From NCBI GenBank assembly GCA_051294905.1, contig CM119371.1:25732001-25796000 (forward strand): DNA of 64,000 nt, read 5' to 3'. Made by a program: the position numbers and the translations under genes. The DNA is from Botryllus schlosseri (Eukaryota). Below, piece after piece: positions 2,466 to 64,000 of the stretch. Position 1 is the first letter of the stretch. Each line of letters starts with the position of its first letter. Under the pieces are notes generated by a model. It was given only the letters and a program-made list of their open reading frames with translations, ran no database searches and was not told where the DNA came from.

Positions 2466-2551
2466 TGACAACCACACCGACAATTTGATATTTTTGTATT
2501 TTCTTACAGCGAACAGCGACAAAATATACACCAACAACGACTCCGATACAT

Positions 2552-3952: not shown

Positions 3953-4775
3953 ACGCTCTATTGGTATATGTTGTACAGTTCACTTTCACCGTCGTGCGAA
4001 TAACCCATGTTACGGTTCCATGTTTGTGTGTCTGTCTGTCATACTTCAGATTGACTCAGAGTCATTGCAATGTGGCTTATTGGTATTGTTATCGGGTGTG
4101 ATGACATTCGATCTACATCAAAACTACCGGCTATGATAATGTCTGTGGATCGATGTTTGTATACCAACACATTGCATGCAATGTCACACACCTCCATTTA
4201 CGCGTATACTGATGTGGGCAAACAAGCGCGACGTATGTCTGGATGGTATTTTTTCGTGGAATGTAACATGTTTAATTTGAATATTGTTCATTGGTTTATC
4301 GATTCAGAGTTGATATCCGGATCCGGTTACATACTTATCGGGGTTTCCGATTTCAAACTGAATGTCGAGACATACATTGACCAATAAAGACACAATATAG
4401 TAAACGCGCGGGGGAAAACTCGACCTGGAATTGTTATCGCGATGGGTGACATAAATCCAACCGTTTTCCGAACACCGTTATCCACATACCAACCATCGTC
4501 AAGGAGGTGTTTTATTCAGACATTTTGACTCTGGAAAATCCAAAGCACGAACCCGGACATCACAGAACTATCGAAGCCTATTGTCCAATTTTCCAAAACA
4601 TGCATTTCTGTGTACAAGAGCGCATTGCATGTGGGTAACCGACGATTTTGATGGGATGCACCAACACAAGTGAATATTTGATTAGACAAATGTATCGGAG
4701 TCGTTGTTGGTGTATATTTTGTCGCTGTTCGCTGTAAGAAAATACAAAAATATCAAATTGTCGGTGTGGTTGTCA

Positions 4776-5575
4776 GATTTCAAAATGAAAATGGTTTTGT
4801 TACTCTAGGAAAAGCTAGATGACCAAGAGAAAATGTATTGTTACACTGGGTAAACGCCAGATCCCCAAAGGAAAATGATATTTTTACTCAGGTAAACGAC
4901 GGATCACCAAGTGAAAAAGGTTTGTAACCCAGGGAAAAATATATTTCCAAGCGAAAAAGGTTTGTTACCCAGGGAAAAAAATATATTTCCAAGTGAAAAA
5001 GGTTTGTTACCCAGGAAAAAATATATTTGCAAGTGAAAAAGGTTTGTTGCTCAGGGAAAAAAGTTTGTTACCCGGGGAAAAAATATATTTCCAAGTGAAA
5101 AAGGTTTGTTAACCAGAGAAAAAATATATTCCCAAGTGAAAAAGGTTTGTTACTCAGAGAAAAAAAATATATTTCCAAGTGAAAAAGGTTTATTACCAAG
5201 AGAAAAAATATATTTCCAAGTGAAAAAGGTTTATTACCAAGAGAAAAAATATATTTCCAAGTGAAAAAGGTTTGTTACCCAGAGAAAAAATATATTTCCA
5301 AGTGAAAAAGGTTTGTTACCAAGAGAAAAAATATATTTCCAAATGAAAAAGGTTTGTTATCCAGGGCAAAAATAGATTTCCAAGTGAAAAGGGGTTTGTT
5401 ATTCAGGCCAAAAATAGATTTCCAAGTGAAAAGGGGATTGTTACACTGGGTAAACGATAAATCTCCAAAGGACAATGGTATTTTAGTTAGGTAACGGTGG
5501 ACCTCCAAGTGAAAATGATAATTTTACACAGGTAAACGTCAGTTGTCCAAACCAGAATGATATTTTTACTTGGGT
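4776..5575 (-). repeat. Inverted copy of the 41-bp minisatellite, one unit shorter
   Basis: Reverse complement of 1625-2465. The mirror coordinate sum shifts from 7199 to 7241 across the array. Confidence 0.93.
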
Positions 5576-8500
5576 AGGTATCTTGTGTTCAACGCCGGTA
5601 GTGTGATTGGTCTTGTTAAACGTAGTTACCGAGTTGTACAATTATGAAGGGGCGGAAAATGAAATTGCTATTATGATCGTCAGAAGATTAAGATTGTTGT
5701 ATGTAGATTTGACAGTAACCCTATCATTCGCATATGACAAACACAATCATGGCCGGTCTCGATCAATGCAAAAGAGATGATTAGTTTTTTGAAACCGTAG
5801 CGAAGACCGCATGTAAATCTATGCGATAGACTTCCATCTCCTTACATTCAGTCGCGTCGTGTCCATTTTAATACGGATCCCACATATATGACATGCACAC
5901 ACTAACGCCGTAAACAGAAGTCGATGATTTTGATTAATAAAAATATTTCTTGACTACATCGGAATGTCTATGTTGTAGAAAGTAAATACTTTTATGGTGT
6001 TGTATGTTTAATGAAAGCGATTGGTTACAAGTATGTTTTGGGAAATTAAATTTATTTTTCTGTATGTGACGAAATGAAAATAGATTCGTGGTTTTAATTG
6101 GATTGTGACTGCGCTGTTTTAATGTACGCTCCAACATGGAGACTTGACGCTGAACAACAATTCGACCCACAAAACATATTCGTTGTATGATTTGTCACTG
6201 GTGTGTAAAGGGTTAGGAATATTTTGAATGATAATATCTACTAGCTGTTTTGTTGTGAGGGTGATCATGTGATGACTCAGCACTTTTCGTTAGCAAAGTA
6301 GATTGATCTATGTGAAAGATGTAAGGACCGTGACTAGAAAACATATGTACTTTGCTGTTGGGGTACTGCTATGGCATTGACATAACCTTCTGGGAGTGAG
6401 TATGCTTTTCTTTCACGAAAGTTTACGTGACTCCGTTGTAATAAATTTGTGTTAACTAAACTCGGATGGATACCGCAATTGTGCTGGACTTACACATGGT
6501 ATTCGCATACTGTGCACATATACAAACTTTTGTGTAAACAACTCTGATGTTTCTGTTAGTACTAGTTCTGTGTTGAACTATTTGATTATTAAGATACATG
6601 AACACCCATTCAGACAATAAAGGTCTTGTGATATCGAAACAGTTTGTAGAGTCTAACCAACCATTCTTTAGTTTCGTAATGCGAGAATATCGAGTAAAGT
6701 TAATTACTTAGTGCGATGTTAATATCCTTCGTACTTTTGTAAGAGTTGTGGAGTAACATACAAAGTAACTAGTTGACACAAACAAAATATCGAATGACTG
6801 CTAACGCATTGAATTCATAATCCAAGAGGGTGAAATTTGTTTACTGTTAAACTAACATAACTCATATCCAACAAAACAGATACAATCCGATGATGTGATG
6901 TTGGTCAATATCCATTTTGTAAAGATTGAGTAAATCCTCCTCCGTCAGGTGGGTGTGATTCAAATCAATAGCATGTTACACATAAACATCATTTGTATTG
7001 AGGGTGATATTGTGAAGATGATGCCGCAACAACACAACAAGTAATATTTTGTATCGGGTGTTTGTACTTTAGGAATAGCATAGTGTGCGATATTTTGGAT
7101 ATGTGTGCACGGTTGTAAACTACGGTTGTTCTTGGGTCTTGCGTCGAGTAAATTGGAACTATGTCTAGAATTCAAACACATCCAAGTAATTTCTTTAGCG
7201 ACTATGATTACATCTACTTTGATGAGAGGAAATTGAAAAATTCAAATGGATACTACTGACGAACACAAAGTGCAAAATGGTTTTATCAGATTTAGGTGTA
7301 CGATATCTTTTCGATTTCTTTACCAGAGTGTGTTTTACAAATAATTCCAGTTCCCCTAACTATAGGATACATTTGGCAAACATCGTGTAAATTGTTTCTT
7401 TGTGATGGTAACGACTTTCGGCGGCTTAGTTTCATGTCGGGAATTATTATTTGAGGGTTCAAAAACAATCAATACTACAAATGAACAACAATACAAAACA
7501 CGTTTAGTGAATTATAGTGTAGCAAGTACTTCCTTGATATTACGATTGTTGTGCACCAGACATTTCTAGCTGATTTGAATGCATCTAGCAAACATATTCC
7601 AATTTACTTTTGTAATGATCAAAGTCTTAGAGTGCGACCTCGTGATATTTTACATTTAGCATGTAATATAGAAAGTGTGAGCGGAGTTGAGTATTAATCG
7701 TGTACTTGGTGTAGTGCTTTGATATCAAAGAGATATTTTCACCCTGTGTAATGTTTCAATTCTCTGTTGTGAATTCCGACAGTAACGACATTGATGTAAA
7801 ATCCTCACCCGTGGTTATTGTAAGTGAATCCTAAACATCGCAACAGTCGGTATGGAAATCGAACGCGTGCGTACTTTTAGATAGGTGACACTAACAAGTT
7901 TATTACATCCGTGAAATACTCTGAAACGTCGATTCGTGATTGTGTTAGCTATATTCATCTTCCATATCTGTGGACACAAAGATATCCCGACTTTGGTTAC
8001 AACTCACTCGAAACGAATTGTTGCGGGCAATCTAAAAAAGCACAAGTCGAAGACGAATGATTTGATTTCAATGAACTAAAAAAGTCCTTTTGATGTTGGG
8101 TTTAATACAATTTGTACGACTATAACGAATCCGATTCCAAAAGTGCTATGTTACATTTAACAAAAAAGTTTGATGACTTGTATTCTGATATTGATAGATG
8201 TGAAAAGTAATATGACTAGTTTATAAAATCCCGATCATGTTCTTTGTCATGTCTGTGTTCAACAAATATGTGATCAATCCTTACCATTCGATATTAACTT
8301 TCGCAGTCGGCGTAAGCGATAATTTGTTGAAGTAACAATATCGACGAGTTCAATAATAGTCTCCATCGATGTATTCGAATAATCTGTCAGCTACAAGTGG
8401 ATTAAAAACTTGATGCCGTTTTGTGGTTAACTCAAGTCGGTGATCGCGTTTGTGTTGATTTGAGGAATGATCATGACGAGTTGGTCGGGTAAATTAGATA

Positions 8501-10029
8501 ATGTGGTTGTAACTATGACCGTAAAGAGTTGCTGACATTCCAATAAGACGAGTTGGTGGTATATGCCTAAAACCGAACTTGATATGTTTGTTGGTTGTAG
8601 TGATTACTTGCGTAGTCTTGACTACTTTTCGTAACGATACTTTTTGTTTTGGTTGGGTAAGTTACAAACGGATTGACTTGACAAGGTTTTTTGTATTTTA
8701 CTCTTTTGTGTATGGGAATCACTCGATTGCAACAAAAAATAACCTGATAGTTTGTTCAAGGTTTCGACAAATAGATTGAAATATTCCGATTTAACTCATC
8801 GCGTCACAACTCGATCGCGGTATGCATAAGTGGTTGTCAAGATAGAAATATTTACAACAACGGGCGATATTTCATTGATTGATTCTATTGTGTGTAGTAA
8901 CACATTAAAATATCGCGATAGTATTTACTGAAACTCTATTTGACAAATGGAAAACTCAGTCGTGAATAGAGTTGTAAGTTTCAAGGATTGTTTCAAAGTG
9001 TAATCTTGAAATGTGACTGGATCAAAGTTGGTAGTCATGTTTGTCAAACCTATTTCTATTCACACTATGTCAAGTCCAAATATTTCATTCTGGATTATTT
9101 GGATTTACCTTTAGTACATCTCGCGAATGGATTCCGATACCGTACTATAACATTCTTAATAATACGGGTTCGAGGGTTTTCATGATAGAGTTGACGAGTG
9201 ATAAGATGCGTGTTTTTGTTAAGAGTTTGATTTCATGTTGATAAAGACAATAACTGTATAATGCACATACTTGTGATTCTTGATTCTTGTAGAATTATAG
9301 TTGGTATTGATTCTATAAGTGTGAAAACAGCGGCGTGGAATGTGCGAATAATTCGATGTAGCTGAAAGTCGGCGTCAGTAATATTCGGGTTATGGTCGAA
9401 TCAAAAGATCACGAAAAGATTTCTCAAAATAATTAGAATTGTACCGAATTAACACATTCAAATACGAATCAACTCGGTTTGTGTAGTGAATTTCATTTCG
9501 ATTTGACAAATTGATACATTGATTGAATATTCTCATAATTCTTATCGTGCAACTAAAGTCAGCCGCTGTTCGAAGTGTCAAAACATATAGCGACCACCAG
9601 AAAGTGTCAAATTGTTGGTTTTCGAATCACCGTCTGCGACGGCTCTGTGACAAACTAATTACCGAAATATTACCTTGTGAGCGATCGGTATGTCTTTTAC
9701 ACCAAATCACTAAAATGGTTATACCCGAGACATTATCTTGTTAGCGATCGCGGGATTTGTAATCTATTTTACACTTTTTGAAGTGTTAATTTACGAGCGC
9801 GGTTATTTGTTGGTTGCTTTTCGTGTCGCTGCTGAATACTGAATACTCCTGAATGTAATAGCGCTGACTGGATTAGTGTAATCGATAGTAGCATGTGGCT
9901 GGTCGTGAAACAATTCCACACGCAGGTCATTCGAAATATAGGTCGCACTGCTTAATCCTCACAACAAGCCACGTTTCCGTTTGTGCGGTTATTGTTGGTG
10001 ACTATTCAACACCACGCGAGAGATGGTTG

Positions 10030-10700
10030 AAAGTGCGAATCACGACCGCACCCATAAGAACACATGGCGAATCACCAACACAATCTATACGCGAAAGTAC
10101 GGCATGCGAAAGTACGATGTGCGAGAGATGCCTACACCCGAAAGTACGATATGCCGACGCAACCATAAGAACACATAGCGAATCACCAACACAGCCTATA
10201 CGCGAAAGTACGACATGCGAAAGTACGATGTGCGAGAGATGCCTACACCCGAAAGGGCAATTCACGGCCGCACCCATAAGAACACATGGCGAATCACCAC
10301 AGATCCCGTAAGAATACATGACAGGCACATCACCGACGCAGCCTATACCCAAAAGGGTGCCGTCACCAGAGATACCATAAGAAACAATGGCACATCACCA
10401 GAGATCCCATAAGAACCAATCGCACATCACCAGAGACCGCGTAAGAAACAATGACACATCACCAGAGATCCCATAAGAACCATTGGCACATCACGAGCGA
10501 TAGGGGGTCTGAAAGGGTACCATCATCACTACGAGTTTTCACGGCAGGTCATGAGCGAGCCCTATACCTGAAAGGGTGGGGTCACCAGAGATCCCATAAG
10601 AAACAATGGCAAGTCACCAGCGATAGGGGGTCTAAAAGGGTGTGGTCACCAACACGAGTTTTCGCGGCAAGTCACGAGCGGGCCCATAAGAACCCCATTG
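10030..10700. repeat. Subterminal tandem repeats: ~111-bp units, then 32-bp units, sharing a CCCATAAGAA core
   Basis: 111-bp units at ~10051, 10162 and 10273. CACCAGAGATCCCATAAGAAACAATGGCACAT-like units at 10364, 10396, 10428 and 10460. Confidence 0.9.
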
Positions 10701-10728
10701 CGTCATGCGAGCGATCGTATATACTACT

Positions 10729-16726: not shown

Positions 16727-19457
16727 TCTTCTATGTGTAAAAATAACGAGTAGATTGAACTTTTAAACTTTATTGTACGACTGAGCCGATTTTCTATCCA
16801 GCCACTAGAGCAAAAATGAGATATTTCAGTAAAAATAGCCCCTTGAGTTATCTTCATAACAAGAGGTCCTTTTAAAAAAACAAGGTCGTATTCGAAATCA
16901 GTGCCCTTCAGAACCCCCACAACCACTCTTACTTTGTCTACCTAAAAATATGTTTTGACCAGTGTTATCATTTCAACTATAACATGCAATTTCAATTGGT
17001 AGGTGAAACTGTATTATATAATCATACCAAAGACTTGAATAATAATCCACTTACCGAAAACATTCCTACGAGCGCTTCTTCCCCTGCTCTGCGGAGTGAT
17101 ATATCCTGAACGCAAATGAAAGGAATCGGTCGGATAATTGTTATTTGTATAAAAAATCAGTGCTAATGATACATGTATCAAAAACAAACGGCGAAATTGG
17201 GCATTTCGCCTATTTTCACCAGAGCGTAGGTTGCCAATTTGTTAATAACAGTTGAAGATATGACTTTACTCCCATTTGAATGTGCTAACACTAATCAAAT
17301 GTGGGAATTTTATTGTTAGGGATGGTGTGAACCTCTGAATGGTTCAAGTTCGTGCGAACGCGAACCATTTTGAAAGGTTCTGTGTGAGCCCGAACGTGAA
17401 CCTCATGACGTTAGGTGACGTCATATTGCTAACTCCAACCCTATATTTCAGTGAAGTGATAGCCTATATTAATATACACGATACCTAGCGACGAGTAGGG
17501 CCACATAATGCCACAATACATAAGTTCATAACGTTTTAAACGTCGCCAAATGTATCAACTGGGCAATCAAATGATATAATAATCCCATAAAATCAATATC
17601 TTCCGTCGCCTTGCCAACAATTTCGACGAGGACTTGCAAGGGAATATAAGCTTACGCCTTAATGGTCTAGGCCAGTGGTTCTCAACCGCCTGTCCACGGA
17701 CCGGTGCCGGTCCACGACGACTTTCCAGCCGGTCCGCCAGGCATTTTACAATTTTATACCTTAATTTCAAGATGCAATATGTTGAAGACTTATCTATAAT
17801 GATTATTGATAAAATAAATAAAACATCAAAATTTAAACTGATTGAGAACTTCGTGAGGTAACATTAGGTCTGGAAACATTTGACTTGAAGTTCAAGCAGT
17901 GTCATTTGACGACATGCGAGCGACAAGTACGAGATGACTCGCCAAATTGCGCAGTTAGCACGATGATGCAGTAGCCTGGGCCCTATCGTAAATGCCGCAC
18001 CACAAACCCTTAATTGAAGGGACCGAGCTTGAAGGGGGCATAAAGGTATTTCTTAAATGAACAAAAATTATACCCTGTTTTAGTAAAAACTTCATCCAAT
18101 TGTTTTCATTTTTTTACGCTTTGTCCTGTTTTGTGTCACTAAATATCTTGATTATTGGGTGCCCTTCTGCCAAGAGATACGCATGATTTATAAGATTAGG
18201 CATTTTCGGCGTCAGTCATTGCCGCACCACGACGCACCAACACATGATGAAGTTTAGGCTAACTGCCCTTTGTAAGTCAAATTGTCCAGAGGCACCGAAA
18301 TGACTGGAACTGAATTTCGTTGTCATGGCAATCTGTAACCCACAGGAACAACGCCATCCCACAGAGAAAAGTGATTTTCCAGTGAAGAAATAGCAATTTG
18401 GAATCATGTGCGTCTTTTTGCTTAGAACGCTTGTGCGATTTCAATATCTATTCACTATATAACAGACAGTAGGTCATGAATTAATGACAAGCAACGAAGT
18501 AAATATTGTAACACACCAGCTCGAATATGTTTAATTTGATTACATACCCTAAATTTTCCAAGACGACACCTCACTCAGCCCTACCGGAGAATTTGATAAT
18601 TCTGAAAGGATAAAAAAATTATAACAATATCTACGCAATTACCAATATTATTGATTGATTCGGTCATGAATTATAAGTACTGGTGAAAGCATCCATCTAA
18701 CTGTGGGGGCCCAAGACCAACGTTTTTCGGGGGGTTAACTGACGACACGTCTTTTCGGCACTGGTTTTGTGTATAGCCATTGGCCATTTATAGCTGTTGC
18801 TAGGTGTTTTCGTGCGGCGCATTGTATTCGTAGTAGCAAGAGTAGCCTCGCCTGGTGGTAGTGGCTAATGAACATTCAGCAACGTAGCACGACAAGGTGC
18901 TTGGTTCGACTCCGAAACACTTCTTCTCTCGATATTGTCGAAGAGAAAAGATTATTCGAGTTGGCGTGGTCGATTAAATCCACGCATACTGCGCGAAAGA
19001 CTGTAAACCAGTGGTTCTCAACCTTTTTAACCTCGCGGACCGGTAAAAGTTCAAAAAATATTCGGCGGACCGGCGAACTTTCAAAAATCGAAATCAACTC
19101 AAAACGTGTAGTAGCCTATGCAACTGTTTTATGCAAGTATATGATGCTAGAGAATGACATTTGAGGGGTTTGATCGTAAATAAAGATGTCCATGATGGTA
19201 TCCATCTGATTAGTGGGTCTGCTGAGTCGAGGTAAAATTGTCCTGCCAAAATAAACGTGCTAGCGCCGGGAGTCGTTCACAGTCTTCCACGCCGAAGGTC
19301 GTGGATTTAACCGACCACGTCAACTCGAAAATTGATATTCTCTTCGACAATATATCGAGAGAACAAGCGCTTCGGAGTCGAACCAAGCACCTTGTCGTGC
19401 TACCTTGCTTATTGCCGACAACCACCAGTCGTAGCTTACTCTGGCTATACTATGAAT

Positions 19458-22498: not shown

Positions 22499-23784
22499 TT
22501 CATATTCGGGTGGGCCTCTTGGACTAATTACCTAATTAGTCATTGCCACTCATTTTTCGTCAAATGACACGGGTTGAACTTCAAGTCAAATCGAACATGC
22601 TCCCAGACCTAAAATGTTACTTCACGACATTATGAAGGAGATTAAAAATTGGTATTTGTTTTATTTTATCAATGGACAAGCCTTCAACATACTGCATCCT
22701 GAAATTTTGTTATAAAATTGCAAAATACCTCGCGGACCGGCTGGAAAGTCGTCGCGGACCGGCACCGGTCCGCGGACCGGCGGTCGAGAACCACTGCTGT
22801 AAACGGCTCTCGGCGGTACCAAGTATGTCTGGGAAGGCAATTTTACCTCGACTCAGCAGACTCCATCACCGGAAAATCACATGGATACCATCACAAACAT
22901 AATAAATTACAATCAAAATTCTCTAGCACCACATACTTGCAAAAACGGCTTTAAACAATACATTTTGGGTTAATATCGATTTCTGAAAGTCCACCGGTCC
23001 GCCCAATATTTTGGGTAGTAGTATATAAAAGCTAGAGCAGAGGCGCAGCAGCATTTGATCACGTGACAATTTTGAATTTCAAATCAAACAGAGAAAAAGC
23101 GCGCGAAAGAGTTATGTCAATACCACTTATATGCGGGACAATGGGTGACAATAACGGGTGTGTGAGGAGAACGAAGCGTGACAGCATAATGGGGTGTGTG
23201 TGCTAGCGACCGTTATGGTATTGCACAATGGGTAATACCCTAGTCTGAAACTAGCGATATTGCACCATACACAGCCTTGATCACGTGACAAGTTTGCAAT
23301 GACGCGCGTCTGAATTTACTTGATGATAGTGGGAATCTCTCACGTGTGTCAAAATGTATGATTTGTTTGAATTTTACGGTAATGAAGCAGGCGAGAGCGC
23401 TACGTCCAATCAATCGCCTCGGCTCTTAATTAAACAAACGCGTCGCCCGCCCGCCCGTCGCGCTTCATTGAAAAGTAACGTTTATTGCGTCTCTAGCGCT
23501 TGCATGAGAGGACAATGGGTGACAATAGATGAAATGATATGACGTATATAAGAGTATGTTTTCAGGCGCTCCAATCTACAATGGGTGACAATAGGTGTCA
23601 ACACTTGACGCGCGTCCGAAGAGGTGAAATGTCATTCACGGTAATGTATGTACAATTTACTTAATGATGCTGGGAATCTCTCACGTGTGTCAAAATGTAT
23701 GAGTTGTTTGAATTTTGAGGTAATGACGCAGGCGAGAGCGCTAAGTCCAATTAATCGCGTCACCTATTATTAAAACAAACGCAT

Positions 23785-24269
23785 CTAATTATTATTTATA
23801 AATAATTTGAAGACGGACCGCCCATCGCGCGTAAGATACTTTAGATCAGACATGGAAAAATCCCCAACAACAACAATATATACTAAAGATAACACTCGGA
23901 AGAGAGAGAGGAAAAGAGGGTGAATGCTCTTGAGGTATATTCTACCCCTGGCTTATTCCGAGTGAAATAAGTTTGCATTACGTTAACGGAATGTATGTTC
24001 AAAAAGTTTAACTAATTATTATTTATAAATAATTTGAAGACGGACCACCCACCGCGCGTAAAATACTTTAGATTAGACATGGAAAAAAACCAACAACAAC
24101 AACATATACTAAAGATAACACTCGGAAGAGAGAGAGAGGAAAAGAGGGTGAATGCTATTGAGGTATATCCTCCCTCTGGCTTATTCCGAGTGAAACAAGT
24201 TTGTATTACGTTAACGGAATCTATTTTCGAAAGTTTAACTAATTGTAATGTATAAATAATTTGAAGACA
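23785..24269 (+). repeat. ~227-bp tandem duplication (2 units plus a partial one), left arm only
   Basis: CTAATTATTATTTATAAATAATTTGAAGACGGACC at 23785 and 24012, partial at 24239. Confidence 0.9.
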
Positions 24270-26194
24270 ATCTGTTGTTGATATTGCAAAATTTTGTATT
24301 GTATTTTGTGTTGCTTCTACAAATATGCGATGTCTTTTAAATTGTTGCGTATTAGATGAAGATACATTAAACTCGTTGTATAATGCTCTCCAAAATCATG
24401 AGGTGAACATCTGGTCTGCATCTGTTTTGTTTTATAACAGCTGATGTAATCGGTAACATAGTGTGTGCTAGTTTTAATAATACTCAAGCATGGCATGTCA
24501 TTAACCGATCGAATTTATCATCAATAGAGTATTCTTGATCACGTTTACTGATAATATATCTGTGCTTATGAGGAAGAGGGTTTCCATCGCTCATTTATTC
24601 ATTCTAATGGTAGTTCCCGCAGTTTCTACATTATCCTATTGACGTTTATTAGCATATACCAGTTTCGAGATCACGTACCGAAATTGACAAAATTGTTCGG
24701 TCGTTAACAATTATTTCTATGACTAATTTTATTACAACCTTATGGTGGTTTTCAGTCTCTAAAATGGTTCTATGCCAATTCCGAGAAGAACATTACCGAA
24801 AATTTCAGTATAGAGAATGGACACCTGAATGAAGGAGACAAGAAAACTTTATGGAAACAATTGCACTCGTCCTGTAAAACGTTATTTTCGGAATAAATAT
24901 GTATCTACACATGATAATTTGGTGTTCTTATTCATTCACTTTATAATGCTTGTCGTGATCGCCATGGACTGATAAGAAAGTAGGTAGGTACATAGGACAA
25001 TAACTCAACGCAGGTTGAAGTCAATTTGCTCACTTGAATGCATAGATGTATAGAATCTTCGAGAAATTATTCCCTCAAATAGTAACAGCATATCCAGAAT
25101 TTAGATTTGTGTCATAAACACAGTATTTAATCTTTTGGGGTTGATTTTACCGGTTGGGTTGCTGTAATTTATATGACGACAGTGAGGAGTAAGTACGAAT
25201 TTAGACTGCTTTTTAGTGTTTAGCCAAAACTAGACCTTGAACACTTACTGTTTACGCATTCGGAAAACGCTACTTATTGTACTTGAGTAAAACGTCAACT
25301 ATATCATGATAGTGAAAGTACTTTTTCAATGGTCTTGATGAAAGGTAGGAGTTCAATCAAAATTCTACAATGCATTTTCGTGATGCTGAATGAATTATCA
25401 CGACGATAACATAGCAAAATAAATCAATTGATTCATGAAGTAGCACTATGGGATATCACCGTTATAAAAATTACCCTTCGACATGACTTTTTCCGTTGTC
25501 AGAAATTGTAGTGTCAATATATTTCCAATGTTTGGTGCTGCTACGCGTATTTACTCATATCATGCCTACAAGCATTCTACGCATTTTATCTTATGTCGAT
25601 GGGCTTCGTATCATTACGGATATGCAGGGCATATAGTATTGTCAATCTATTAGTCCAAATTTCCCACTTAGGTGAAGCACCGCATGACTTCTGGTTATAA
25701 ACAGTTAATAACATTCGGACATGCGTAATTGATATGTAAAATACTATTTAGCACACGTGAAACTCAATTCGCTTCTAAATTTATCTAAGTTATCACATTT
25801 CACCCAACCTCAGCACTACGTCTGTCGCGGACGTGGTCATGTCGTATAATACCACTAGAAATCCATATAGCTTGGTTGTCTAGAGGTACCTTTGTACATA
25901 CTATTATTTGCAAACACTGATAGAAAATGTTATTTGTAGTGTGTGAAACTGGATTCATTTTTCATAGTTATAATCCGATATGATGAAAAAGTAATACCAG
26001 TCACAAAACATCTGATATTAGAAACAATCGTCATGGCACATTGAACAAATTTCACCGCCGCTGAGGTTTATTATCTCGGTTTGTTGGAACTACAATTGAA
26101 CAGCGGCTGGCTACCAGTAAAACAAGAGGTATTGCTATCCTCACAGGAGCTATTACACGATTTGCATGGAAATTCGTTTGATGTCCATGTTTAT

Positions 26195-26866
26195 TAGGGC
26201 TCTTCAAAAATTACTTTTTTTCTTCTCACATCGTACTGGCTACTTGATATTATTGTTAGGTTACCAAATTCAAGCCTTCACACAAAATTTGGTTCAATTC
26301 CAACCAGTAGCCGCATTGCTACAGGAGAAGAAAGTTTTTATTTATTATACAGAAAGAAGTAGCAAAAAATTTGAAAATTTATTGTTCACCCCTTGAAAGT
26401 GTTAAGTTGTCTATAGAAACGATGTTCACCAAATTTGGTTCAATTCCAATCAGCGGAAGCGGAGATATTGCAGTGGAAAAATTTGAATTATGAATAAAAT
26501 TTTATTTACGGTGAGCAGTTCTCTGATTTTTATTATAGTGGTACCCACTGTAAATACTATTTCATTCAAATCCAAATTTTTCGATGGTAATAGCTCCGCT
26601 CCCACTGGTTGTATTGAACCAAATTTGGTGAACATCGTTTCTATAGACAGCCTAACACTTCCATGGGGTGAACAGAAAATTTTCAAATTTTTTTTTGCTA
26701 TTTCTTTTTATATATTAAATAGAAACTTTCTTCTCCTGTAGCAATGCGGCTACTGGTTGGAATTGAACCAAATTTGGTGTGTAGGCATAAATTAGGTAAC
26801 CTAACAATAATATCAAGTGGCCAGTACGATTTGAGAAGAATAAAATGTCATTTTTGAAGACCCCTA
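26195..26866. mobile_element. Palindromic MITE with TAGGG termini (hAT-type)
   Basis: Long inverted arms; TSD ATGTTTAT/ATGTATAT; related to 44888-45393. Confidence 0.8.
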
Positions 26867-27441
26867 ATGTATATACACCTCTATGCCTCTGTATTTGTTA
26901 GTGGCGATTGTGATTGGACTCTCCGATGCGACGGTTAATAACATCGACAATGAGGTAGTGAGCAAACTGTATTGTCAAGGCAATCTTATAAATTTACCCA
27001 CCGCCTGAAATTTAAATGAGATCTCAGCAGGTCAGTTATGTGGTAACAGAGGTAATAGCTGACAATTCAAAACCTCACACGAAATCAGAGAAAGTTTTAT
27101 TCCTGCCTGCGATAAAATTTAAAAAAAAATGTTTGTTAAGAATTGAAAACGATCCCCATGTCAAATCATACCAATCGTAGACGTATTTGCGTCATGTCCG
27201 CAGAGATAAAAGAAAACTTAATTTCTTCTTTGAAGCAGAGAAAAGCCTAGTTGAGTGCTCCGGAAAGGTAGAAGTACTTCGTCATTGCGCACCTATGTAA
27301 GACTGTGGTTGCTGCTATGCGCATTCTGGTAGTTGGCCTTTGGCGTAAGCCAAAATAGTTCAGAACCACTGTGCTAGTGTGCCGCGAACTATTTTTCATT
27401 TTCAAAGTGTGCCGCGAGGTCAAAGAGGTTGAGAACCACTG

Positions 27442-27740
27442 CTATAATTTATATGACGACAGTGAGGAGTAGCTACGAATTTAGACTACCTTTTTAGTGT
27501 TTAGCCAAAACTAGACCTGAAACACCTACTGTTTACGCATTCGGAAATAGCTACTTGTTGTACTTGAGTAAAATCTCCTATGCCATGATAGTAAAAGTAC
27601 TTTTTCAATGGTCTCGATGAAAGGGAGGAGTTCAATCAAAATTCTACAATGCATTTTCGTGATGCTGAATGAATTATCACGACGATGACAGAGCAAAATA
27701 AATCAATGATATTAAAGTTATAAAATTAGCCTTCGACATG
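27442..27740 (+). repeat. Third, more diverged partial copy of the TIR-arm segment 25162-25485
   Basis: CTATAATTTATATGACGACAGTGAGGAGTA...CTTCGACATGA matches 25162 onward and starts immediately after a hAT terminus. Confidence 0.85.
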
Positions 27741-29539
27741 AATCAACCTATTGAAAATTATCTTAAGAAAACGAATATTATGACCCACTACTACCAAACA
27801 GGGTGATATGGACTAATTTATTCCTTTGTCAGGAATGGTTATACTTCTACTTTTCAGACGTCGTAGCTTCATGCTCTGTTCATATTGCATGTTGTTCATT
27901 TATTTCGCGAGCTCGCGATTGGTTATCGACTTTCTGTTTCTGAAGAAGTTGTTGATGGAAGGTACTCGGTAACGAATTACTCGAGGTTATCAGAGCTTAC
28001 TCTATTACGGTTTGCCTATCTGCTACATAAAGCAACCGAATACATAAAATGTTTCAGACAACAGTAAATACGCTACGTCTTCACAAAAGAACGCGAAGAA
28101 AGCATGTTTCACATAGTATCACGGTAAGAATTGTAATCAAAGCTCACGTGGCTACGAAGGTGTCAGCAAGTAAAATCAGCAAGTCTATATCCGGCTTCCG
28201 GCCCTGATTTAGTAATCGACTCGACCAGCTTTCATCACAAACTTTCACAAATTATTCAATAACAATGACCAGCTAATAAAAGTCGGTAATGTTTAAGTAC
28301 GTTATCATCAAGTCAATACTTGATTTGTTGTAAATATACAACGCATGCATTGGTTTATTCTTGCCTAAAGCGGATTTAGAGATCTTGACAAAGGTATTGT
28401 GATTTATGGGTGTGGAAATTTCCTTGTAACCCAATATTCCCTATGTTCCCGATGGTCCACAGTTAATATTTTGGTATCAGATTGTATAACTCCAACAGTC
28501 GTATCGAACATACACTTTGCCTTATTCCTGGATAAAGCCGCAAAAGTTTAAGTATGAAAAGTTCCTTTTAAAATAATTTTATTTATGTTCCCGACACCTC
28601 ATGACTACTAATTATAATGAGAAATTTTGAAATGGTCGCAGCTAACACAAAATGACTATAATGACACCACTCATGGCTAGAATCTTCAAAACATATATTC
28701 CATCACCTTGATTCAGTAGCTATTATACGCATTTATTCTGGCAATTTAACTGGTGATAGTGGTGCTGTATTATCCCTGAAGTACTTTCTACCATACAAAA
28801 ACAAATTGCAAACGAAATTAGTTCATCCAGAATACTGTTCAGGCAAATGTTGAAGTAGTTGTAAAACATCACGACTTCAGTAAGTAGTACAAGTAGACAA
28901 AATCTACCCGAGTACCACGAGGAAGTATCAATATTCCAAGCATATATAATATCTCAAAAACGTGCCGTGATAAAGTAAAAATAACGTCAGATTCGTGTTC
29001 AGCACCCCAAATTGAGTATTATTGACCAACGAAGTCCTGCCACAAAAATCGTGTAGACCAGTGTAATAGTGAGTATAGATATTACATTCCGTAAGAAATA
29101 ATGGTATATACAATTGCAGTCCTCGGCTGTTGTTTTATGGAAGTCTTCGTAGGTCTGTATGGGAAAATGTCTATTGCCATGTCAATATCTCCCAAACCAC
29201 TTTAGTCAGAACTAAGCCAATGCGCACATATCATATATTGTATTGGAGTTATATTATTTATCACCAAAATCGTACCTGTTAAACCACAGAAACCTGAAGA
29301 AAACTTGATTATAAAAGTTATCATAAGATCTAATTGCTCCAGTTACTCCGCTATCATATTTTGACTTCACGAGAAGATCCGTTATGTTACCTCCGATGTT
29401 TGATACCGATATCCTCACAAAATGTGATATTATCGACACTGAATTGACACTAGCCCCTGAATTTCCCCACCCGCTCGCAATTGGGATATGTTTTATTAAC
29501 CCTCGCTGCACTAATAGGGGTTTATGACGAGACGGCTCT

Positions 29540-30200
29540 GTATGTACCATGTATTGCAAACAGATATTATTGCGATAAATGATTTTTTCCAATCTTCTCG
29601 AATTCTACTGGGGATTGAGTCCAACTGTCCGACAAATATTACATTTAATATTTGTGAGAGTGATTTGCATAGCCATGTGACACTTGAGGTCGTGTGAGTA
29701 AATGCTTCACATATCGCATGTATTGTTCTTTGAGATTATATGCATTCTGATATGACGTTTCAGGTTACTCTTTCGAGAAATTTATTTACCGCAAATATCA
29801 CATGAAATCTTGTTTTTTCCGAAATGCATATCCGAATGGTGTTGGAAGTTACTCCTATCGAGAATTTTCTTTCCGCAAATGGCACATTTATATAGGAGAG
29901 CGCTATGCCTATCGATGTGTCGTTTGTAGGCATCCTTTCCCATATATTCTTTCTCACAAATTTCGCATGCAATCTTTTCCATGTCGCCATGTAATTTCAT
30001 ATGTCGTGTAAAGAACCATTTCCATGAAAATGCTTTACCACAAATTTCGCATTCACACTCTTCCACCCTGATATGGACATTCATATGACGGGTCAATAAA
30101 CCTTTCAATCGGAATGCTCTATCACAGATTTCACACTTCACACAGCCGCGAATGTAGATTGGAATTATTGATGTAGTAAATCTTCGGACAAAAGTATCTT
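29540..30200 (-). pseudogene. C2H2 zinc-finger array pseudogene (at least 5 clear fingers plus degenerate ones)
   Basis: ORF 29782..30141 contains CEICDRAF..H..H, CEICGKAF..H, CEICEKEY..H and CAICGKKI..H. The fifth finger CDICGK*ISRKSNLKRHIRMH has an in-frame stop; more stops and frameshifts follow. Confidence 0.9.
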
Positions 30201-33200
30201 CCCAAATCAGCTGGATGAGTCAACTTACTCTGTGTACCCATAAGAATCCTCCGGTTACTTCTTAAAAAAGTAAAATCTAGAGAAACGGTTGAGTTTAGTA
30301 TGCAGTGCTTTGACGTGACTGTGAAGTACTGAATTAACTACAAATAATCGACTCGAAGAGTTGCATCATATGCGCACATTACAAAATTTACTTCAGTACT
30401 CCTGAAAGTAGAATTACTTTGTTCCTGATTATATTTGTATGGTTCGATGATATGAACATCTATCAACGATTTCGACAAATATTACAATTCAGTGTCTGCA
30501 ACTAGAACTACTTAACTAAGTCGCAACTATAACTATAACTAAAACTACTCACTTTCTAAAATACCCAACTAGAACTAGAACTTGAATTAGAACTTGAAAT
30601 CCTAACCTTTTTAAACTCGACTAAACTAGAATTAAAACTAGAACTACTCACTAATGCCATAAAAGGATCGATATTATTTTGGTACATCAACTCTAGCTTC
30701 TCGGACATCATTCAAAAGAACAGCAGTATCTTGAGTCACGAAAAAACGACGACACGTGTATTTTAGTTGTTCGACAACTAATATTTTTTCAAATGTGCAA
30801 CTAGAACTAGGACCAGAAATACTCACTTTTCAAAATTCGCAACCAGGGCTATAGAAGTGGCTGAAAAAACCGTTAGTTGATCATTTTATCACTTAAATAA
30901 GTGAATTTATCATATATTTCCTTTACTTGCAGTAACGGAATGCACTTTATTTCTCGTGGATTTCACGGGAGTTCTTGTGTCCTATTTCTATTACTATTTC
31001 GATTTTCTAGAACAAAGCGACACTGATATAGTGGTTAAAATTAATAGAAACTAATACCGACTTTTGATTAAAATCTTGTTACGATATATGATCCGTCAGC
31101 TCGTTTCGAACTTGGAAGTTTACGTAAATACCTGCACCCCTTTATCCGACATAGTCAATGCGTTGGTGGTGTTATATCATACTGACGGACAATGGTTTCA
31201 TAACTCATGGGGAATTTCGCTTATTGAGGATGATCAACTGATAACACAAACGCTGAAAATTCACTAGTATGAAAATTTATGAGTGATCACTAGCAATAAG
31301 TATAGTTTTAAGCTTCGAGATCACACGAAACACATTTTGTATTCTGATTTTATTAGCTCTTCGAATTGATAATAACTCACTCAATTCAGAGACATGTAGG
31401 ACTTATTGAACTACTCACTCATTTCTTGATCATCAACCCCAACTATCTAATTGGATAATAATGACACATCCACTCAAAAGCTTGTGTTACCGACGTAATC
31501 CAGTGCTTTCAATTTAGAAATTATTGAAAATTAATGCATCGCATTATAACAGTACAAAAAGTGCGAACTCATTTGTTGCTTCTCATTCTCAGAAAATTTA
31601 ATTCCACCTGTGTAGCAGCGGTTCCGAAGTCATTAAAGGTTAAGAACCGAACTCGAATGGATTTCATTCTCTTACGCAACACCTTAACTTTTAATATATC
31701 GTAAATATCAGATATAGAATCTACATTTCGAAAGTAAGAGATTTCGAGTTTGAAATAGGAGATATTCCAACCACAAATAAACCCACCCGACGGCTATACC
31801 GCTGATGATTCTGACTAGAATCGACTGCCCGGACGTCATTTAACGGAACGGCGGTATCTCGATTCACGAAAAACGGCAACATGTGTTTTCTAGTTTTCCG
31901 ACAGCTAGTATTTTTTCGAATGCACAACTAGAACTAGGATCAGAACTACTGAATTTTTAAAATCTACAACTATATTATTTTCAATTGAGACAATGTGCTA
32001 TGACGATTGTTTCTAATATCAGATGTTTTGTGACTGGTATTACTTTTTCATCATATCGGATTATAACTATGGAAATGAATCCAGTTTCACACACTATACA
32101 AATAATATTTTCTATCAGCGTTTGAAAATAAAAGTATGTACAAAGGTACCTCTAGACAACCAAGCTATATGGATTTCTAGTGGTATTATACGACATGACC
32201 ACGTCCGCGACAGACGTAGTGCTGAGGTTGGGTGAAATTTAATAACTTAGATAACTTTAGTAGGGAATTGAGTTTCACGTGTGGTAAATAGTATTTTACA
32301 TATCAATTACGCATGCCCGAATGTTATTAACTGTTTGTAACCAGAAGTCATGCGCTGCTTCACCTAAGTGGGAAATTTGGACTAATAGATACACAATACT
32401 ATATGCCCTGCACATCCGTAATGATAGGAAGCCCATCGACATAAGATAAAATGCGTAGAATGCTTGTAGGCATGATATGAGTAAATACGCGTAGCAGCAC
32501 CAAACATTGGAAATATATTGACACTACAATTTCTGACAACGGAAAAAGTCATGTCGAAAGGTAATTTTTTATAACGGTAATATCCCATAGTGCTACTTCA
32601 TAAATTAATTGATTTATTTTGCTATGTTATCGTCGTCATAATTCATTCAGCATCACGAAAATGCATTGTAGAATTTTGATTGAACTCCTACCTTTCGTCA
32701 AGACCATTGAAAAAGTACTTTCACTATCATGATATAGGACGTTTTACTCAAGTACAATAAGTAGCGTTTTCCGAATGCGTAAACAGTAAGTGTTCAAGGT
32801 CTAGTTTTGGTTAAACACTAAAAAGCAGTCTAAATTCGTACTTACTCCTCACTGTCGTGATATAAATTACAGCAACCCAACCGGTAAAATCAACCCCAAA
32901 AGATTAAATACTGTGTTTATGACACAAATCTAAATTCTGGATATGCTGTTACTATTTGAGCGTCATTACCTCAAAATTCAAACAAATCACACATTTTGAC
33001 ACATGTGACAGATTCCCCGCATCATTGTAAATTGTACATACATTACCGTGAATGACATTTCACTTCTTCGGACGCGCGTCAATTGTTGACACCTATTGTC
33101 ACCAATTGTAGATTGGAGCGCCTGAAAACATACTCTTGGATACGTCATATCATTTCATCTATTGTCACCCATTGTCCTCTCATGGATGCGCTAGAGACGC

Positions 33201-33230
33201 AATAAACGTTACTTTTTAATGAAGCGCGAC

Positions 33231-33281
33231 GGGCGGGCGGCGGCGGCGGCGGGTGGGCGGCGGCGGCGGGCGGGCGGGCGA
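33231..33281 (+). repeat. GC-rich microsatellite (GGC/GGGC)n
   Basis: GGGCGGGCGGCGGCGGCGGCGGGTGGGCGG... read directly. Confidence 0.9.
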
Positions 33282-33751
33282 CGCGTTTGTTTAATTAAGA
33301 GCCGAGGCGATTGATTGGACGTAGCGCTCTCGCCTGCGTCATTACCGTAAAATTCAAACAAATCATACATTTTGACACACGTGAGAGATTCCCACTATCA
33401 TCAAGTAAATTCAGACGCGCGTCATTGCAAACTTGTCACGTGATCAAGGCTGAGTATGGTGCAATATCGCTAGGTTCAGACTAGGGTATTACCCATTGTG
33501 CAATACCATAAAGGTCGCTAGCACACACACCCCATTAAGCTGTCACGCTTCGTTCTCCTCACACACCCGTTATTGTTACCCATTCTCCCGCATATAAGTG
33601 GTATTGACATAACTCTTTCGCGCGCTTTTTCTCTGTTTGATTTGAAATTCAAAATTGTCACGTGATCAAATGCTACGATTTGATTGGTCCGCCTCTGCTC
33701 TAGCTCTCATATACTACTGAGGTCCTACATGTAGAGTAAGTCGCTCTAGAT

Positions 33752-34914
33752 CAGGGGTGGGCAAACTTTTCAGCTCGCGGGCCGCATTCAACATCTGAAT
33801 CCATTCGCGGGACGCATTAGGGTATAATCGGAATTATAAGTGAAGACGCAAACTTTTGTTTGATTTTATAGTAACTATGGAGACGTGGAAATTATACATA
33901 TAAACCATTGATTTGATGATAACGCACATGCGTCAGAAACATTAACGAGATTTTATGACCTGGCCATCTTCAATTAATTCGTCAAAATTAGGAATGGAAG
34001 TAGGTTGTGCCGATTCTTGGGACAAGATGGAAATTTGAATATGTGAGAAGCGATCAGCTCACATATATGCTGATTCTGAGTTTGGTTAAGCTTCAGACCG
34101 CCCAACGCTGACATCATCATAACCAGCATGATTCATTTAAATACGTTTCAACAAATGACTTCTTAACGTTCTTTTGTGGGGACGACATCAACATAATTTA
34201 CTGTTGTCTCAAAACTTTTTAATAATTCGGTTGATTTATTTCAGACCGCACACATTTCATGTGATACAATGGGCCTACCATCAGTATGTTCCGATTCGAG
34301 TGATGTTTCAAATTGCTGCAACGAATTCATTACAATAATGTCATATTGTGACAAGTAATTCGTCTTGCGTTACCTCCGACATCGAAACAGAAGTACCTTT
34401 CAGTTAATTCGTTACTGATAGCAAAGAATTCAACTTTTCGCTTTTTGTATTCGGTTTTTGTATTCGCTTTTTGTATTGATTTAGACAACCCATTATAAAC
34501 AAATTGAGGACCGAGTTACAAACAATTTGCTCCTAACTGCGCATAAAGAGAACGAATCACGCACGCACGAAATGGTTTTTCCAAGTACAGCACTGAAAGT
34601 TGGCGTTCTAACCCGATATCACAATTACTATCCGAACTAATTATTTCCGTTTTGTGTTTCTCAGATGTTCAGGAACTGGTCGGGCTACTCCGCCAACCAT
34701 AAATTCAAAATATAAAATATTATGATTATAATTTAATCTATCTGATATCATGATAAAGTATCGTTTAACCAAGTGTCTCCATAATCCATAGTAATTAGAT
34801 TTGTATTGCGCATTTTATCAAAATGTCGAATACATTTCTCGATGCCTTCGCGGGCCGCACAAAATGCCGTAACGGGCCGCATGCAGCCCGCGGGCCGTAG
34901 TTTGCCGACCCCTG
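33752..34914. mobile_element. Charlie-type hAT non-autonomous element
   Basis: CAGGGGTGGGCAAACT / AGTTTGCCGACCCCTG TIRs; perfect TSD CTCTAGAT. Confidence 0.92.
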
Positions 34915-38346: not shown

Positions 38347-38649
38347 GGGAAGCGAGTGGCGCAGTCGGTTAAACACTGCAGCCACGACATCGATGGTTCG
38401 ATCCTCGGCTCTGCCATGTTTCTATGTGTCGGAGGTTTATCTGGGCTCCCCATCGCCGATCCCGCTGTAAATACAGCGCCTCGAAAAGCCCAGAAGAAGA
38501 GAGAGCCGAACTCAGGAAAGGTGGCAGCTAAAGACCAGAAAAACGAAGCAAGAACGCAAAAGACCTTGTATTAATGCAATTGATGTGCTGGGCGCAAATA
38601 ACCATATAGGCGATAAGCGCCAATGTTGTGAATAAAACAAACAAACAAA
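38347..38649 (+). mobile_element. tRNA-derived SINE, second family
   Basis: A box TGGCGCAGTCGG, B box GGTTCGATCCT, AATAAAA(CAAA)n tail; paralogue at 63803-64000. Confidence 0.85.
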
Positions 38650-43470: not shown

Positions 43471-44887
43471 GGGATTATGAGACACAGGAATTTCAAATTC
43501 AACTCAAAACAGATCGGCTGGGATGAAACCTTTGCCAGAAATGACCGTCGTTGGTTTCCCAGATCATGTCAATTCAAAATCTCAGCAACTTGTGTGCCAA
43601 ACTTGTTCAGACGTGACTTAAATGTCGTTGTAAGCAAGACATCTCACCAACCGCTTATCAGAAGCTGGCCAACGATACGGTTTCACCAGTGGTTCACTAA
43701 ATCGTTCGATATTGGGTCTCGAGAAGATTTCTGCGTTGATTTATACAGCTTATAGAGGCGTAACCTTCACTACATATCGGTGCTCCGTCACAGATGTATT
43801 TCTTTGGCAATCTGCATCTTCCAACGCCATAGAATTCGGAATATTCACCAAAGCACGCTCGATAACCCATTTCCAAATCTGAGGATGCCGGTATTTCGTC
43901 GCTCCCGTCGCTTCAAATATTTATTTCGATTAAATACCATGTGGTCAAAACGGACACAGGGGATTTTCCTGCGAACAGGTAGCCTATACACCATGCAGGC
44001 TTGTCTTGGCACATTCATAATCACCAGGAATCGACCGAAACCTCCGACAAACATGTCGAATGCAGTGGCGGCTCGCCCTACAGGGCTACTGGGGCATTAT
44101 CCGGCCTAAAATTCTATTCAATAACAATGATGTACAGTTTATAGACGCTCAGCAATCAATATATACCAGAATCACCGTGAAAATCGCATTCTTTTGTGCT
44201 TTCGCTTGTAAATGCCCATATGTAGCGAAGTCTGTACGAAAATCGAATTATCTTCTGTGTTTTCGGTTTGTAAATGCCTAGCCAGGGCTTGCCCGGTAGC
44301 GCTCATAAAAAGCTTTCACAGTCTGTTCTCTCGAAGCCACTTCAATAAAGATACGGTGAATAACTGTCCTATTCGTCAAATTACCGAGCAACCGGGGCCA
44401 CTTGGCGAGTCGCCCTGCCAATGTGATGTAACAATGGTATATATACCTGAGCATTGTAACCGTTCTATGCAGTGAGTCGACCTTTGCTGGTATAAGTCGA
44501 TTTTGACGGTGATTTGCAACATGATAATTCTTAAAACTTGATCTGTTACGTCTTGATGGTGGTATTTAACACTGCTCCAAGTTTCAGGGTTGCTACTTAA
44601 CGTTTAGGGTAGTAATTTCGCATCCAAAGTTGACTGTGTACTGATATGTCATGTATCGCAAACAGATTTTACTAACAGCGGGTATTGGTCTCTAGAGATT
44701 TTGGTTGAATTATCCGCCGAAATGCGTGTTTTTGCCCTCTTTATTGTTGTCCGTGTCTTTAAGGCTTCTTGGGTAGGCTTAGGCTATTTACATTGTTGCA
44801 ATGTTGCATTGTTTAGTTTTCATAGATTTAACCCGGTTCGATCAAGTAAATTCGCCTACGCATATAGCGTCAGTGACAAATAAGCAT

Positions 44888-45393
44888 TAGGGCTGCTCAA
44901 AAATAACTTTTATTTTTTGGATTCCAGAATTCACTTATTAAATTATCAGGTTACCCTAAAAAACGCTGCACACCAAATTCGATTCAATTCTAACAAGTAT
45001 AGGACTCCGCAGATCCAATTAAAATTTTTAATTTATTGGAAATATTTTAAAACAATTTCAAATTTTTCTGCCAACCCCATGAAATTGTTGAGCTGTCTTC
45101 AAAGACGATGCAAACAAATTTGACTCAATTCCGGCCAGTAGAAGCGGAGTTATGTGAGTTTTTCGTTGATAATTTTCGGCTTATTCACCGCTCAACAATG
45201 TGATGGGGTTGGCGGGAAAATTTGATTTTCTTTTCAATTTTCCCTAATAAATTGAAAATTTTAATTGGATCTGCGGAGTCCTATACTAGTTAGAATCGAA
45301 CCAAATTTGGCGTGCAGCATTTTTAGGGTAAACTGACCATTTAATAAGTGAATGGCTGGAATCCGGAAAAAGAGATGTTTTTGAACAGCCCTA
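44888..45393. mobile_element. Palindromic MITE with TAGGG termini
   Basis: Long inverted arms; perfect TSD ATAAGCAT. Confidence 0.9.
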
Positions 45394-46779
45394 ATAAGCA
45401 TTCTTTGTATTAGTTCGTATGTTACATCGACATTAAATGAATAATAGCTATGACCGCGGAATCATATTGTAATTCACAATTATCGTATGCTTAGATAGGC
45501 TACTCGTGCTTTGCCTGAAATTTCACCCTGACTACCATACTGTTACCGATATATCTCAAGTGTGTGGCAAAAATACGGTACATTGTGAAGTTGCCAAGAA
45601 ATTGGTATATAATTTATTTCATGCCACGTCAAAGGCACAATTGTACAATGTACTTGTACAAGGACGACGATACGTAAGCTACATAGCCTACGTACATTAC
45701 CAAAAATAACTCGGGCCTATTCCGGATGGCATCAGAGTATAACCACAGTCATGCAGGTTTACGGTATTTAGAACTGGGAATACTGGAATAACCTAAATTT
45801 CAGTCAAAATTTACGTAAGTAATACGCAATAGCCTACCCCATGGGCGTAACAAGACTTTAAAATAGAAGGGGCACAAGGTTACGTCACGGAACAATCATT
45901 GAATCGGGCGAAAGGAGCCTAAATAGGGGCAAAGTTTCCCAAACAAAAAATCTCAAGGGGCGGCAGCATTTCTCTGCACCTTCCTGATTACTTTCATATC
46001 TATAATGTTATGTTATTCAATATTTGGTAGATTTTTGAATTGCTCAGTAAGCCAGCCTAACAAGCAATTGGCATACAGCTTTCGGATCGTATCGATGGTT
46101 CGATCCGTCAAGATGAATCTAGTACGGCAAGACTTTTTTCAGCTTCTGATGACATCTGTCGAATAATTTGAAATACGTAAGCCTTGTTAACCACGCCTAA
46201 CGTCTATATACAAACTGTGTGTGACCACCATGAAGTCACATTTTCACGTCTGAATACATTATTGTGACGTCATTTAGACAATTAAAATCGCATGCACCCC
46301 TTGCCCCATTACCCGATATTGTCACGAGCCGCCACTGGTCGAATCTATCATAAATTACAGTGATTATGATGAAATATCATGCCTTTCGGTCAGCGCATTC
46401 AATATTACATCACTATGCACAGCATGCAATGTCATTCGACCCCCCAACCCCCACGAAAAGCCAATGAGTGGTATTATTGATGATATTCATGTACAGGTAC
46501 ATAAATATTTGCTAATGCTCCCTATCCTTGCAGCTCCTAGTTTCGATCAATTTACAAATCAGACTACCTCGAAGTTGACAGCATGTCACAATATATAGAA
46601 AAGAACTATTGATGATGAATTTTTAGTATTCAATAAATCATTGTTGATGTATCATACGACTTCTTTACTCCGCACATGCTGGTCATGTTGCTAGAGTGAA
46701 GAAATGGTGGAAGCGGTGACGAAACCAGATGAATTTCTTTCGAATCCATTTCTCGGATGCATGAATATGTCGTAAGTAC

Positions 46780-49024: not shown

Positions 49025-49055
49025 ACCTAGTTACTATGGGAGGGACACTCTAGTA

Positions 49056-63802: not shown

Positions 63803-64000
63803 CTGTTCGCAGTTGGTTAAACACTGCAGTCACGACATCGATGGTTGATGGTTCGAGTCTCGGCTCTGCCATGTTTCTATGTGTCGGAGGTTTATCTGGG
63901 CTCCTCATCGCCGATCCCGCTGTAATACAGCGCATTGAAATGCCCAGACGAAGAGAGAGCCGAACTCATGAAAGGAGGCAGCAAATGAGCCGAAAAAAAG
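63803..64000 (+). mobile_element. tRNA-derived SINE (family of 38347-38649), cut by the window edge
   Basis: High similarity to 38355-38545. Confidence 0.85.

Follow-up and report, generated by a model that had tools for sequence, protein, structure and literature searches.

Mavericks (Polintons) have been described as elements with a 6-bp target-site duplication, 7-8 core open reading frames (ORFs) and accessory regions, and the account given in PMC8097293 names (AGT)2//(ACT)2 as their commonest end motif and (AG)3//(CT)3 as another that is known. We analysed a 64,000-nt stretch of the Botryllus schlosseri genome (assembly GCA_051294905.1, contig CM119371.1, positions 25,732,001-25,796,000 of the forward strand), hereafter the window, to whose positions all coordinates refer, and within it a 10.7-kb element at 23017-33718 that has Maverick ends and mirrored arms around a core with a decayed C2H2 zinc-finger array. 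The element is like the Mavericks of PMC8097293 in its end motif, in its long terminal inverted repeats and in a size near the low end of their range; unlike them, it has no detected core ORFs, no 6-bp duplication and host repeats inside, and its arms of ~3 kb and length of 10.7 kb stand against 46-1,447 bp and 12.7-24.6 kb. The cargo-carrying Mavericks of nematodes, as presented in bioRxiv 10.1101/2022.07.12.499685, likewise hold a host-type gene region of several kb inside Maverick ends; they keep or kept core genes and were transferred repeatedly, whereas here there are no core genes, a broken cargo and one locus. No description of a Maverick-ended element with a tandem C2H2 array was found in the open-licence PubMed Central and bioRxiv literature. 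The element at 23017-33718 is most likely an old relic at one locus. It resembles a non-autonomous Maverick in its working, yet we do not class it as a member of that group because it shows neither a target-site duplication nor core genes.

The termini and arms of the element are considered first. The 10,702 bp run from AGTAGTATAT to ATATACTACT (a strand is given here only for features that have one): AGTAGTATAT occupies 23017-23026, its reverse complement occupies 33709-33718, the Maverick terminal motif 5'-(AGT)2//(ACT)2-3' is present at both ends, and the inverted arm identity begins exactly at the terminal bases 23017 and 33718 with no flank included. The matching termini of an earlier interpretation, hereafter the sequence-only reading, are thereby borne out. 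Chance would place the terminal 10-mer in the window 0.36 times; it is present three times, in each case as the end of an inverted-repeat element. Neither viral nor metagenome contigs gave a match to the exact terminal patterns. Arm identity with so sharp a limit at the AGTAGT termini argues for end-specific machinery and not for random break repair. With the left arm at 23017-26043 and the right arm at 31991-33718, the lengths of 3.0 and 1.7 kb previously assigned to them hold as spans; only ~1.7 kb is actually paired (1,626 matches and 51 mismatches over 1,677 paired columns, 97.0%), and the left-arm segment 23730-25073, 1,345 bp with a 227-bp tandem duplication at 23785-24268 (91.6%) inside it, has no mate in the right arm. 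The outer part, where 23017-23729 pairs with 32960-33718, is 96.6% identical and the inner part, where 25074-26043 (plus strand, GC 35%) pairs with 31991-32960 (minus strand), is 97.2% identical; since the two parts are equally diverged, they were made or homogenised together. The left terminal block (23017-23785, plus strand) has a GC content of 44%, a CpG observed-to-expected ratio of 1.34 and a 132-bp duplication (23313-23444 and 23654-23785, 88%). Because the right arm breaks within a unit of this 132-bp repeat, and the same unit runs on intact in the left arm, we infer that 1,345 bp were deleted from the right arm and that the original arms were ~3 kb each.

Kilobase arms, internal repeats and captured host DNA are also typical of Pack-MULE and foldback elements (PMC8277862), and the element could in principle be a long-armed member of another superfamily (Mutator/foldback type, Pack-TIR) whose Maverick-like ends arose by chance. 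This is improbable: no 4-11 bp duplication lies within 3 bases of either end, against the 9-10 bp given for Mutator-like elements in PMC8277862, no transposase was found by Pfam in six frames, and the 10-base terminus fits the Maverick motif and recurs on a second element with a different subterminal sequence. The single-copy Pack-TIRs of animals in that paper are alike in being one copy with non-coding ends around host-type DNA, and most of them are reported to have originated through gap filling with DNA from close by and not through transposition; they are unlike the present element in that host-type DNA here also lies in the inverted arms and no parental copy was detected for the core. Neither Maverick nor Polinton is mentioned in the main text of PMC8277862.

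The coding content of the element is a decayed C2H2 array at 29600-30219 on the minus strand. Four complete fingers (30135-30073, 30051-29989, 29967-29905 and 29886-29824) lie within a 145-residue stop-free stretch that has no methionine ahead of finger 1, a fifth finger (29802-29740) is broken by a stop at 29782-29784, and more stop-bearing decayed remains come after it. The fingers follow the pattern C-x2-C-x12-H-x3-H at ~28-residue spacing, which identifies a tandem C2H2 array, and their linkers are of normal length and non-canonical sequence. In a six-frame Pfam scan with X at stops, zf-C2H2 (PF00096) was matched in one of the six frames (E=4.8e-14, 52.3 bits against a cut-off of 25.2), and no other family was matched at E<=1 in any of the six. 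A ~6-kb core with such an array as its sole recognisable coding content, as first described, is therefore upheld (the core measures 5.9 kb and Pfam finds C2H2 only), and an intact zinc-finger ORF, which the sequence-only reading had left to be looked for, is not there: stops lie in and after finger 5 and no methionine leads. The zinc-finger gene is dead in the window copy. A 116-residue stop-free stretch at 29257-29604 was considered as a further gene and treated as non-coding, its PHROG match being weak (E=0.016), its recognition low and no Atlas match usable. In contigs of two of the samples compared below (X1 and X5), a joint at 29960-30127 steps back by 168 bases, or two finger lengths, which suggests an allele or relative with additional fingers.

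How the array came to lie between Maverick ends is the next question. Maverick accessory regions hold diverse ORFs (PMC8097293), Mavirus has a C2H2 finger gene and some protist polintons have C2H2 Zn-ribbons (PMC3671162), and the GC content of the core (36%) is nearer to that of a neighbouring satellite arm (36%) than to that of the flanks (39-41%); all of this would suit a once autonomous Maverick that was internally deleted and whose C2H2 gene was native to its accessory region. We regard such an origin as quite unlikely. At Pfam sensitivity, no polymerase B, integrase, ATPase, protease or capsid was found in any of the six frames, a scan that heavily frameshifted remains may escape and that had no positive control, and PHROGs found no Maverick-type gene among 14 stop-free segments. 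The array is of the tandem 28-residue animal type, and none of 39 candidate stretches in viral contigs was confirmed as a relative. Intact vertebrate Mavericks have terminal repeats of 46-1,447 bp (PMC8097293), shorter than the 3-kb arms here. The relatives that were found are generic: identity does not exceed 36% in 31 longer proteins, a single match (34%) came from four candidates of near length, and identity is 26-38% among the best 150 of 85,918, a ranking by array length in which closer short relatives may be hidden. In the one RNA run compared (X10, about 6 in 100 of it read), none of 119 matching reads, all of them partial, was at least 99% alike. By hand translation over ~36 aligned bases, eight of its reads run on in frame to a canonical H-T-G linker, a weak sign that they come from another gene, an expressed relative of the array, and to that extent a point against a native gene. 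Captured rather than native zinc fingers are weakly favoured.

Taken together, we somewhat favour the view that this is an old, gene-less element with Maverick ends that depended on a helper and carries host-type cargo. Its description as non-autonomous and Polinton-like agrees with the commonest Maverick ends, the lack of any core gene and arms that form one unit of equal age, and fails on the 6-bp duplication, which is missing. Two further observations speak for it. A low-copy segment of 270 bp is found in the inner arms (one copy at 25160-25428) and, as a third and older copy, in the core at 27440-27707 (plus strand; 92.9% identical to the left arm and 91.4% to the right), with 19 sites at which both arms agree against the core copy and four that are private to the right arm; the presence of this segment in both arms and the core ties them to one molecule. 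Moreover, the window holds a second palindrome, unrelated to this element, that ends in the same 10-11 bases. We propose a series of steps by which such an element could have formed. A Maverick-type end of ~770 bp would have been joined to host-type DNA, and mirroring of the end together with ~2.2 kb of the joined DNA would have given two ~3-kb arms with a 6-kb middle between them. End-primed strand-displacement copying, which keeps Maverick terminal repeats identical, is the likely route of this mirroring. With both ends intact, the unit could then have relied on a helper Maverick, whose polymerase would copy it and whose integrase would insert it, the zinc-finger array being a passenger, probably of host C2H2 family origin. 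After landing, the insertion footprint would have gone, 1.35 kb of the right arm would have been lost and host miniature elements gained; recombination between two nearby copies, or deletion from one end, would most simply explain the loss of the footprint.

A number of observations weigh against this view. The hexamers next to the ends (TTGGGT on the left and GAGGTC on the right) do not match, no 4-11 bp duplication appears when the ends are shifted by up to 3 bases, and such shifts give only a 3-bp chance match between the flanks. On the left flank (22797-23016), a host miniature element is truncated ~45 bp short at the element terminus, and the missing tail, which two intact copies in the window display, is not on the right flank (33719-33816), where 32 bp unlike the left flank are followed by a very high-copy miniature element from ~33751. 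Because the cut left-flank element has no continuation at the right, the flanks as they are today do not form the two halves of a single, cleanly interrupted site. In addition, no second full copy of the element was seen in contigs. These contigs come from a comparison of 27710-34800, a stretch that takes in the greater part of the core together with the right arm and the flank beyond it, with four of 24 runs at 85% likeness, in which one sample, X1, is perhaps the sample behind the window. Another, X6, which bears another organism label, shows almost no right arm and little right flank at a depth of just 2.2-2.5.

The same contigs bear on copy number. Summed contig depth gives a rough ratio and no copy number, and holes in it prove nothing; over 29132-29842 it is 8.3-12.4 in X1, where reference-identical contigs have 6.0-7.9, and 184-215 in X5, where long contigs have 185-223. 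The zinc-finger core acts as a single locus in X1 and X5. Short matches to other fingers raise the depth of the bin 29843-30079 by a factor of 2-3, and no second core copy was found in contigs at a likeness of at least 85%, only finger-length cross-matches. The inner terminal block at 33253 has a depth of 25.6 in X1 and 374 in X5, near the single-locus expectation. Within the right terminal block (32960-33718, minus strand), only the last ~120 bp (33602-33718) belong, in both X1 and X5, to a family of high copy number; the depth at 33626 is 1,436 against ~8-12 in X1 and 9,829 against ~215 in X5. One X5 contig crosses the boundary between core and right arm (31740-32179) and another is terminal block at ~1.7 times the core depth. 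These two contigs and the high copy number of the terminal ~120 bp count in favour of the gene-less, helper-dependent element. An assembly artefact was considered for the core and the right junction and dismissed, three X1 contigs being the same as 27710-29851 with no differences and one crossing the right junction (33365-33779). In the vicinity of the right end, a contig of single-locus depth joins end-like sequence back to subterminal sequence (33424-33687) and another, of high depth, connects 33177 with 33602, and these joins point to variant or tandem forms of the end elsewhere.

These results raise the alternative that the zinc-finger locus is a host locus that never moved, flanked by two opposite ends of one Maverick-type family whose distal halves were deleted or, in a variant, by one end with local DNA that was re-inserted nearby before deletions. 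An immobile locus would suit the absent duplication, the flanks that do not rejoin, a core that is single-locus in X1 and X5, and in X6 too with little arm there, and a host-repeat share of the core (11%) near that of the flanks (8-22%). It also has a precedent in the Polinton-driven rearrangement of C. elegans eri-6/7 which, as described in PMC11414722, is alike in that a segment of a host gene lies between Polinton terminal repeats and individuals differ structurally; there, however, the gene still works and N2 has direct repeats, while here outward-facing ends form a unit around a broken gene. Against it, no second terminus or terminal-block remnant occurs within the core, the low-copy 270-bp segment is common to arms and core, X5 has the same core-arm junction and terminal-block sequence, and the distal halves would have to have been lost in two separate events. 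We hold the immobile locus to be possible and distinctly less probable than the gene-less, helper-dependent element. A single-copy host locus between two independent inverted insertions, the case that the sequence-only reading had set against its own, agrees with the data in one respect, the zinc-finger segment being single-locus at a likeness of at least 85%, and not in the other, two independent inverted insertions being disfavoured.

The comparison of the arms with the copies in other samples reveals an age paradox. X5 and X6 both carry the core, with five small indels in common; in X6 it is represented by 2,400 of 3,820 bases in the listed pieces, at 93-96% identity. Between the window and the listed pieces there are differences at 222 of 3,735 bases in X5 (5.9%) and at 130 of 2,417 in X6 (5.4%), counts that exclude one piece each, matching the third 270-bp copy. 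The arms differ from each other at 51 of 1,677 positions (3.0%), below both values (Fisher p=3e-6 for X5 and 4e-4 for X6), a comparison subject to unequal rates in arm and core and to chimeric contigs. Within 33027-33298, X5 differs at 15 sites and the arms at eight, with at least seven differences at which both arms agree. Since alleles of one insertion should not predate its arms, these results imply homogenisation of the arms after insertion, separate insertions in X5 and X6, or arms on an older host locus. The last is what an immobile locus would lead one to expect, its arms being younger than the split of X5 and X6. Separate insertions would belong to a 'Pack-Maverick', a gene-less unit that moved with its C2H2 cargo and whose copies in X5 and X6 lie elsewhere, perhaps with an open gene; we consider this unlikely. 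A fixed site whose arms were homogenised later would be the simplest reading because there is one locus in each sample. The suggestion of the sequence-only reading that such elements provide a route for dispersing C2H2 arrays is not supported, given single-locus depth in X1 and X5, no duplication, flanks that do not rejoin and no RNA read at least 99% alike. Horizontal transfer was considered for X6, where the core is present and host repeats are few (103 records of host miniature-element contigs, against ~3,800-4,000), and was not adopted, as low coverage can explain this pattern.

The core itself (26044-31990, 5.9 kb) is host-type DNA with dispersed repeats, some of which we label miniature or hAT-like elements. 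It contains a palindromic miniature element (84%) at 26180-26881, with a sister copy beyond the element at 44880-45401, the end only of a host miniature inverted-repeat element at 27382-27441, which matches 19009-19038, and two decayed host repeats within 28027-28882, of which 28027-28328 is like 33896-34239 and 28661-28882, high-copy in contigs, is like 59477-59695. A high-copy insertion of 461 bp at 30532-30992 is present in the window copy and absent from X5 and X6 contigs, and part of it recurs at 31825-31970 (79%). In total, 1,156 of the 10,702 bp of the element match elsewhere in the window, and in the half of the young neighbouring element none do, a contrast in keeping with an old element.

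This neighbouring element is the second palindrome referred to above. The window positions 1-10728 form the right part of a giant palindrome whose left end lies beyond the window; its arms (1-3188 and 4053-7198, complementary at 99-100%) enclose an 864-bp spacer, and 41-bp tandem arrays are present too. No host repeats occur in this palindrome, and at 10728 it ends in the AGTAGTATAT terminus. It is probably a palindromic Maverick-ended satellite. It is like the zinc-finger element in its 10-base terminus, its lack of core genes and its mirrored arms, and differs in having arms of 99-100% identity around 864 bp where the zinc-finger element has arms of 97%, a 5.9-kb core and a mid-element cargo. 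Past the terminal 10-11 bases, no DNA or translated similarity between the two was found. In the terminal regions of these unrelated end families (23017-23729 and 10009-10728), ATGGG is iterated on one strand only, with five and seven copies; the five lie in the left terminal block of the zinc-finger element. The motif is absent from the opposite strand of both end blocks and occurs at ~0.6 per kb in flanks. From this sequence pattern, the arrays are possible binding sites of an end-binding protein common to both families.

In the remainder of the window, AGTAGTATA at 38035 was considered as an element end and set aside as chance, having no inverted partner. A short repeat with two copies 88% identical (38360-38543 and 63808-63997) begins with tRNA-derived-looking sequence and is SINE-like by eye, ARAGORN and Rfam being blank there. 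The regions 49049-53308 and 57546-62467 have nested, partly inverted repeat blocks in common at 78-93% identity, and an inverted pair is located at 58475-58736 and 60988-61252. Pfam gave four weak matches, none at cut-off, on 103 of 121 stop-free segments of at least 72 residues (the 103 exclude 14 segments of the element and four that are repeat-derived, and segments ending before 3600 were dropped as mirror copies), and Rfam and ARAGORN gave no matches. Because no host protein domain passed the cut-off in the segments tested, 10729-64000 looks like repeat-rich, gene-poor DNA.

As it stands, the element is a minor addition to what is known of Maverick-type elements: it represents a second, older end family of gene-less members, in this case with arms that incorporate host-type DNA. 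The age gap between arms and alleles offers a cheap test of whether arm likeness derives from replication before insertion or from later chromosomal conversion. C2H2 proteins are the fastest-turning-over transcription-factor family of animals. If the unit were found at different sites in different individuals, it would mean that virus-like transposon satellites can carry C2H2 genes; and if it moved as a unit, helper-dependent satellites would bring zinc-finger genes to new loci or across close species.

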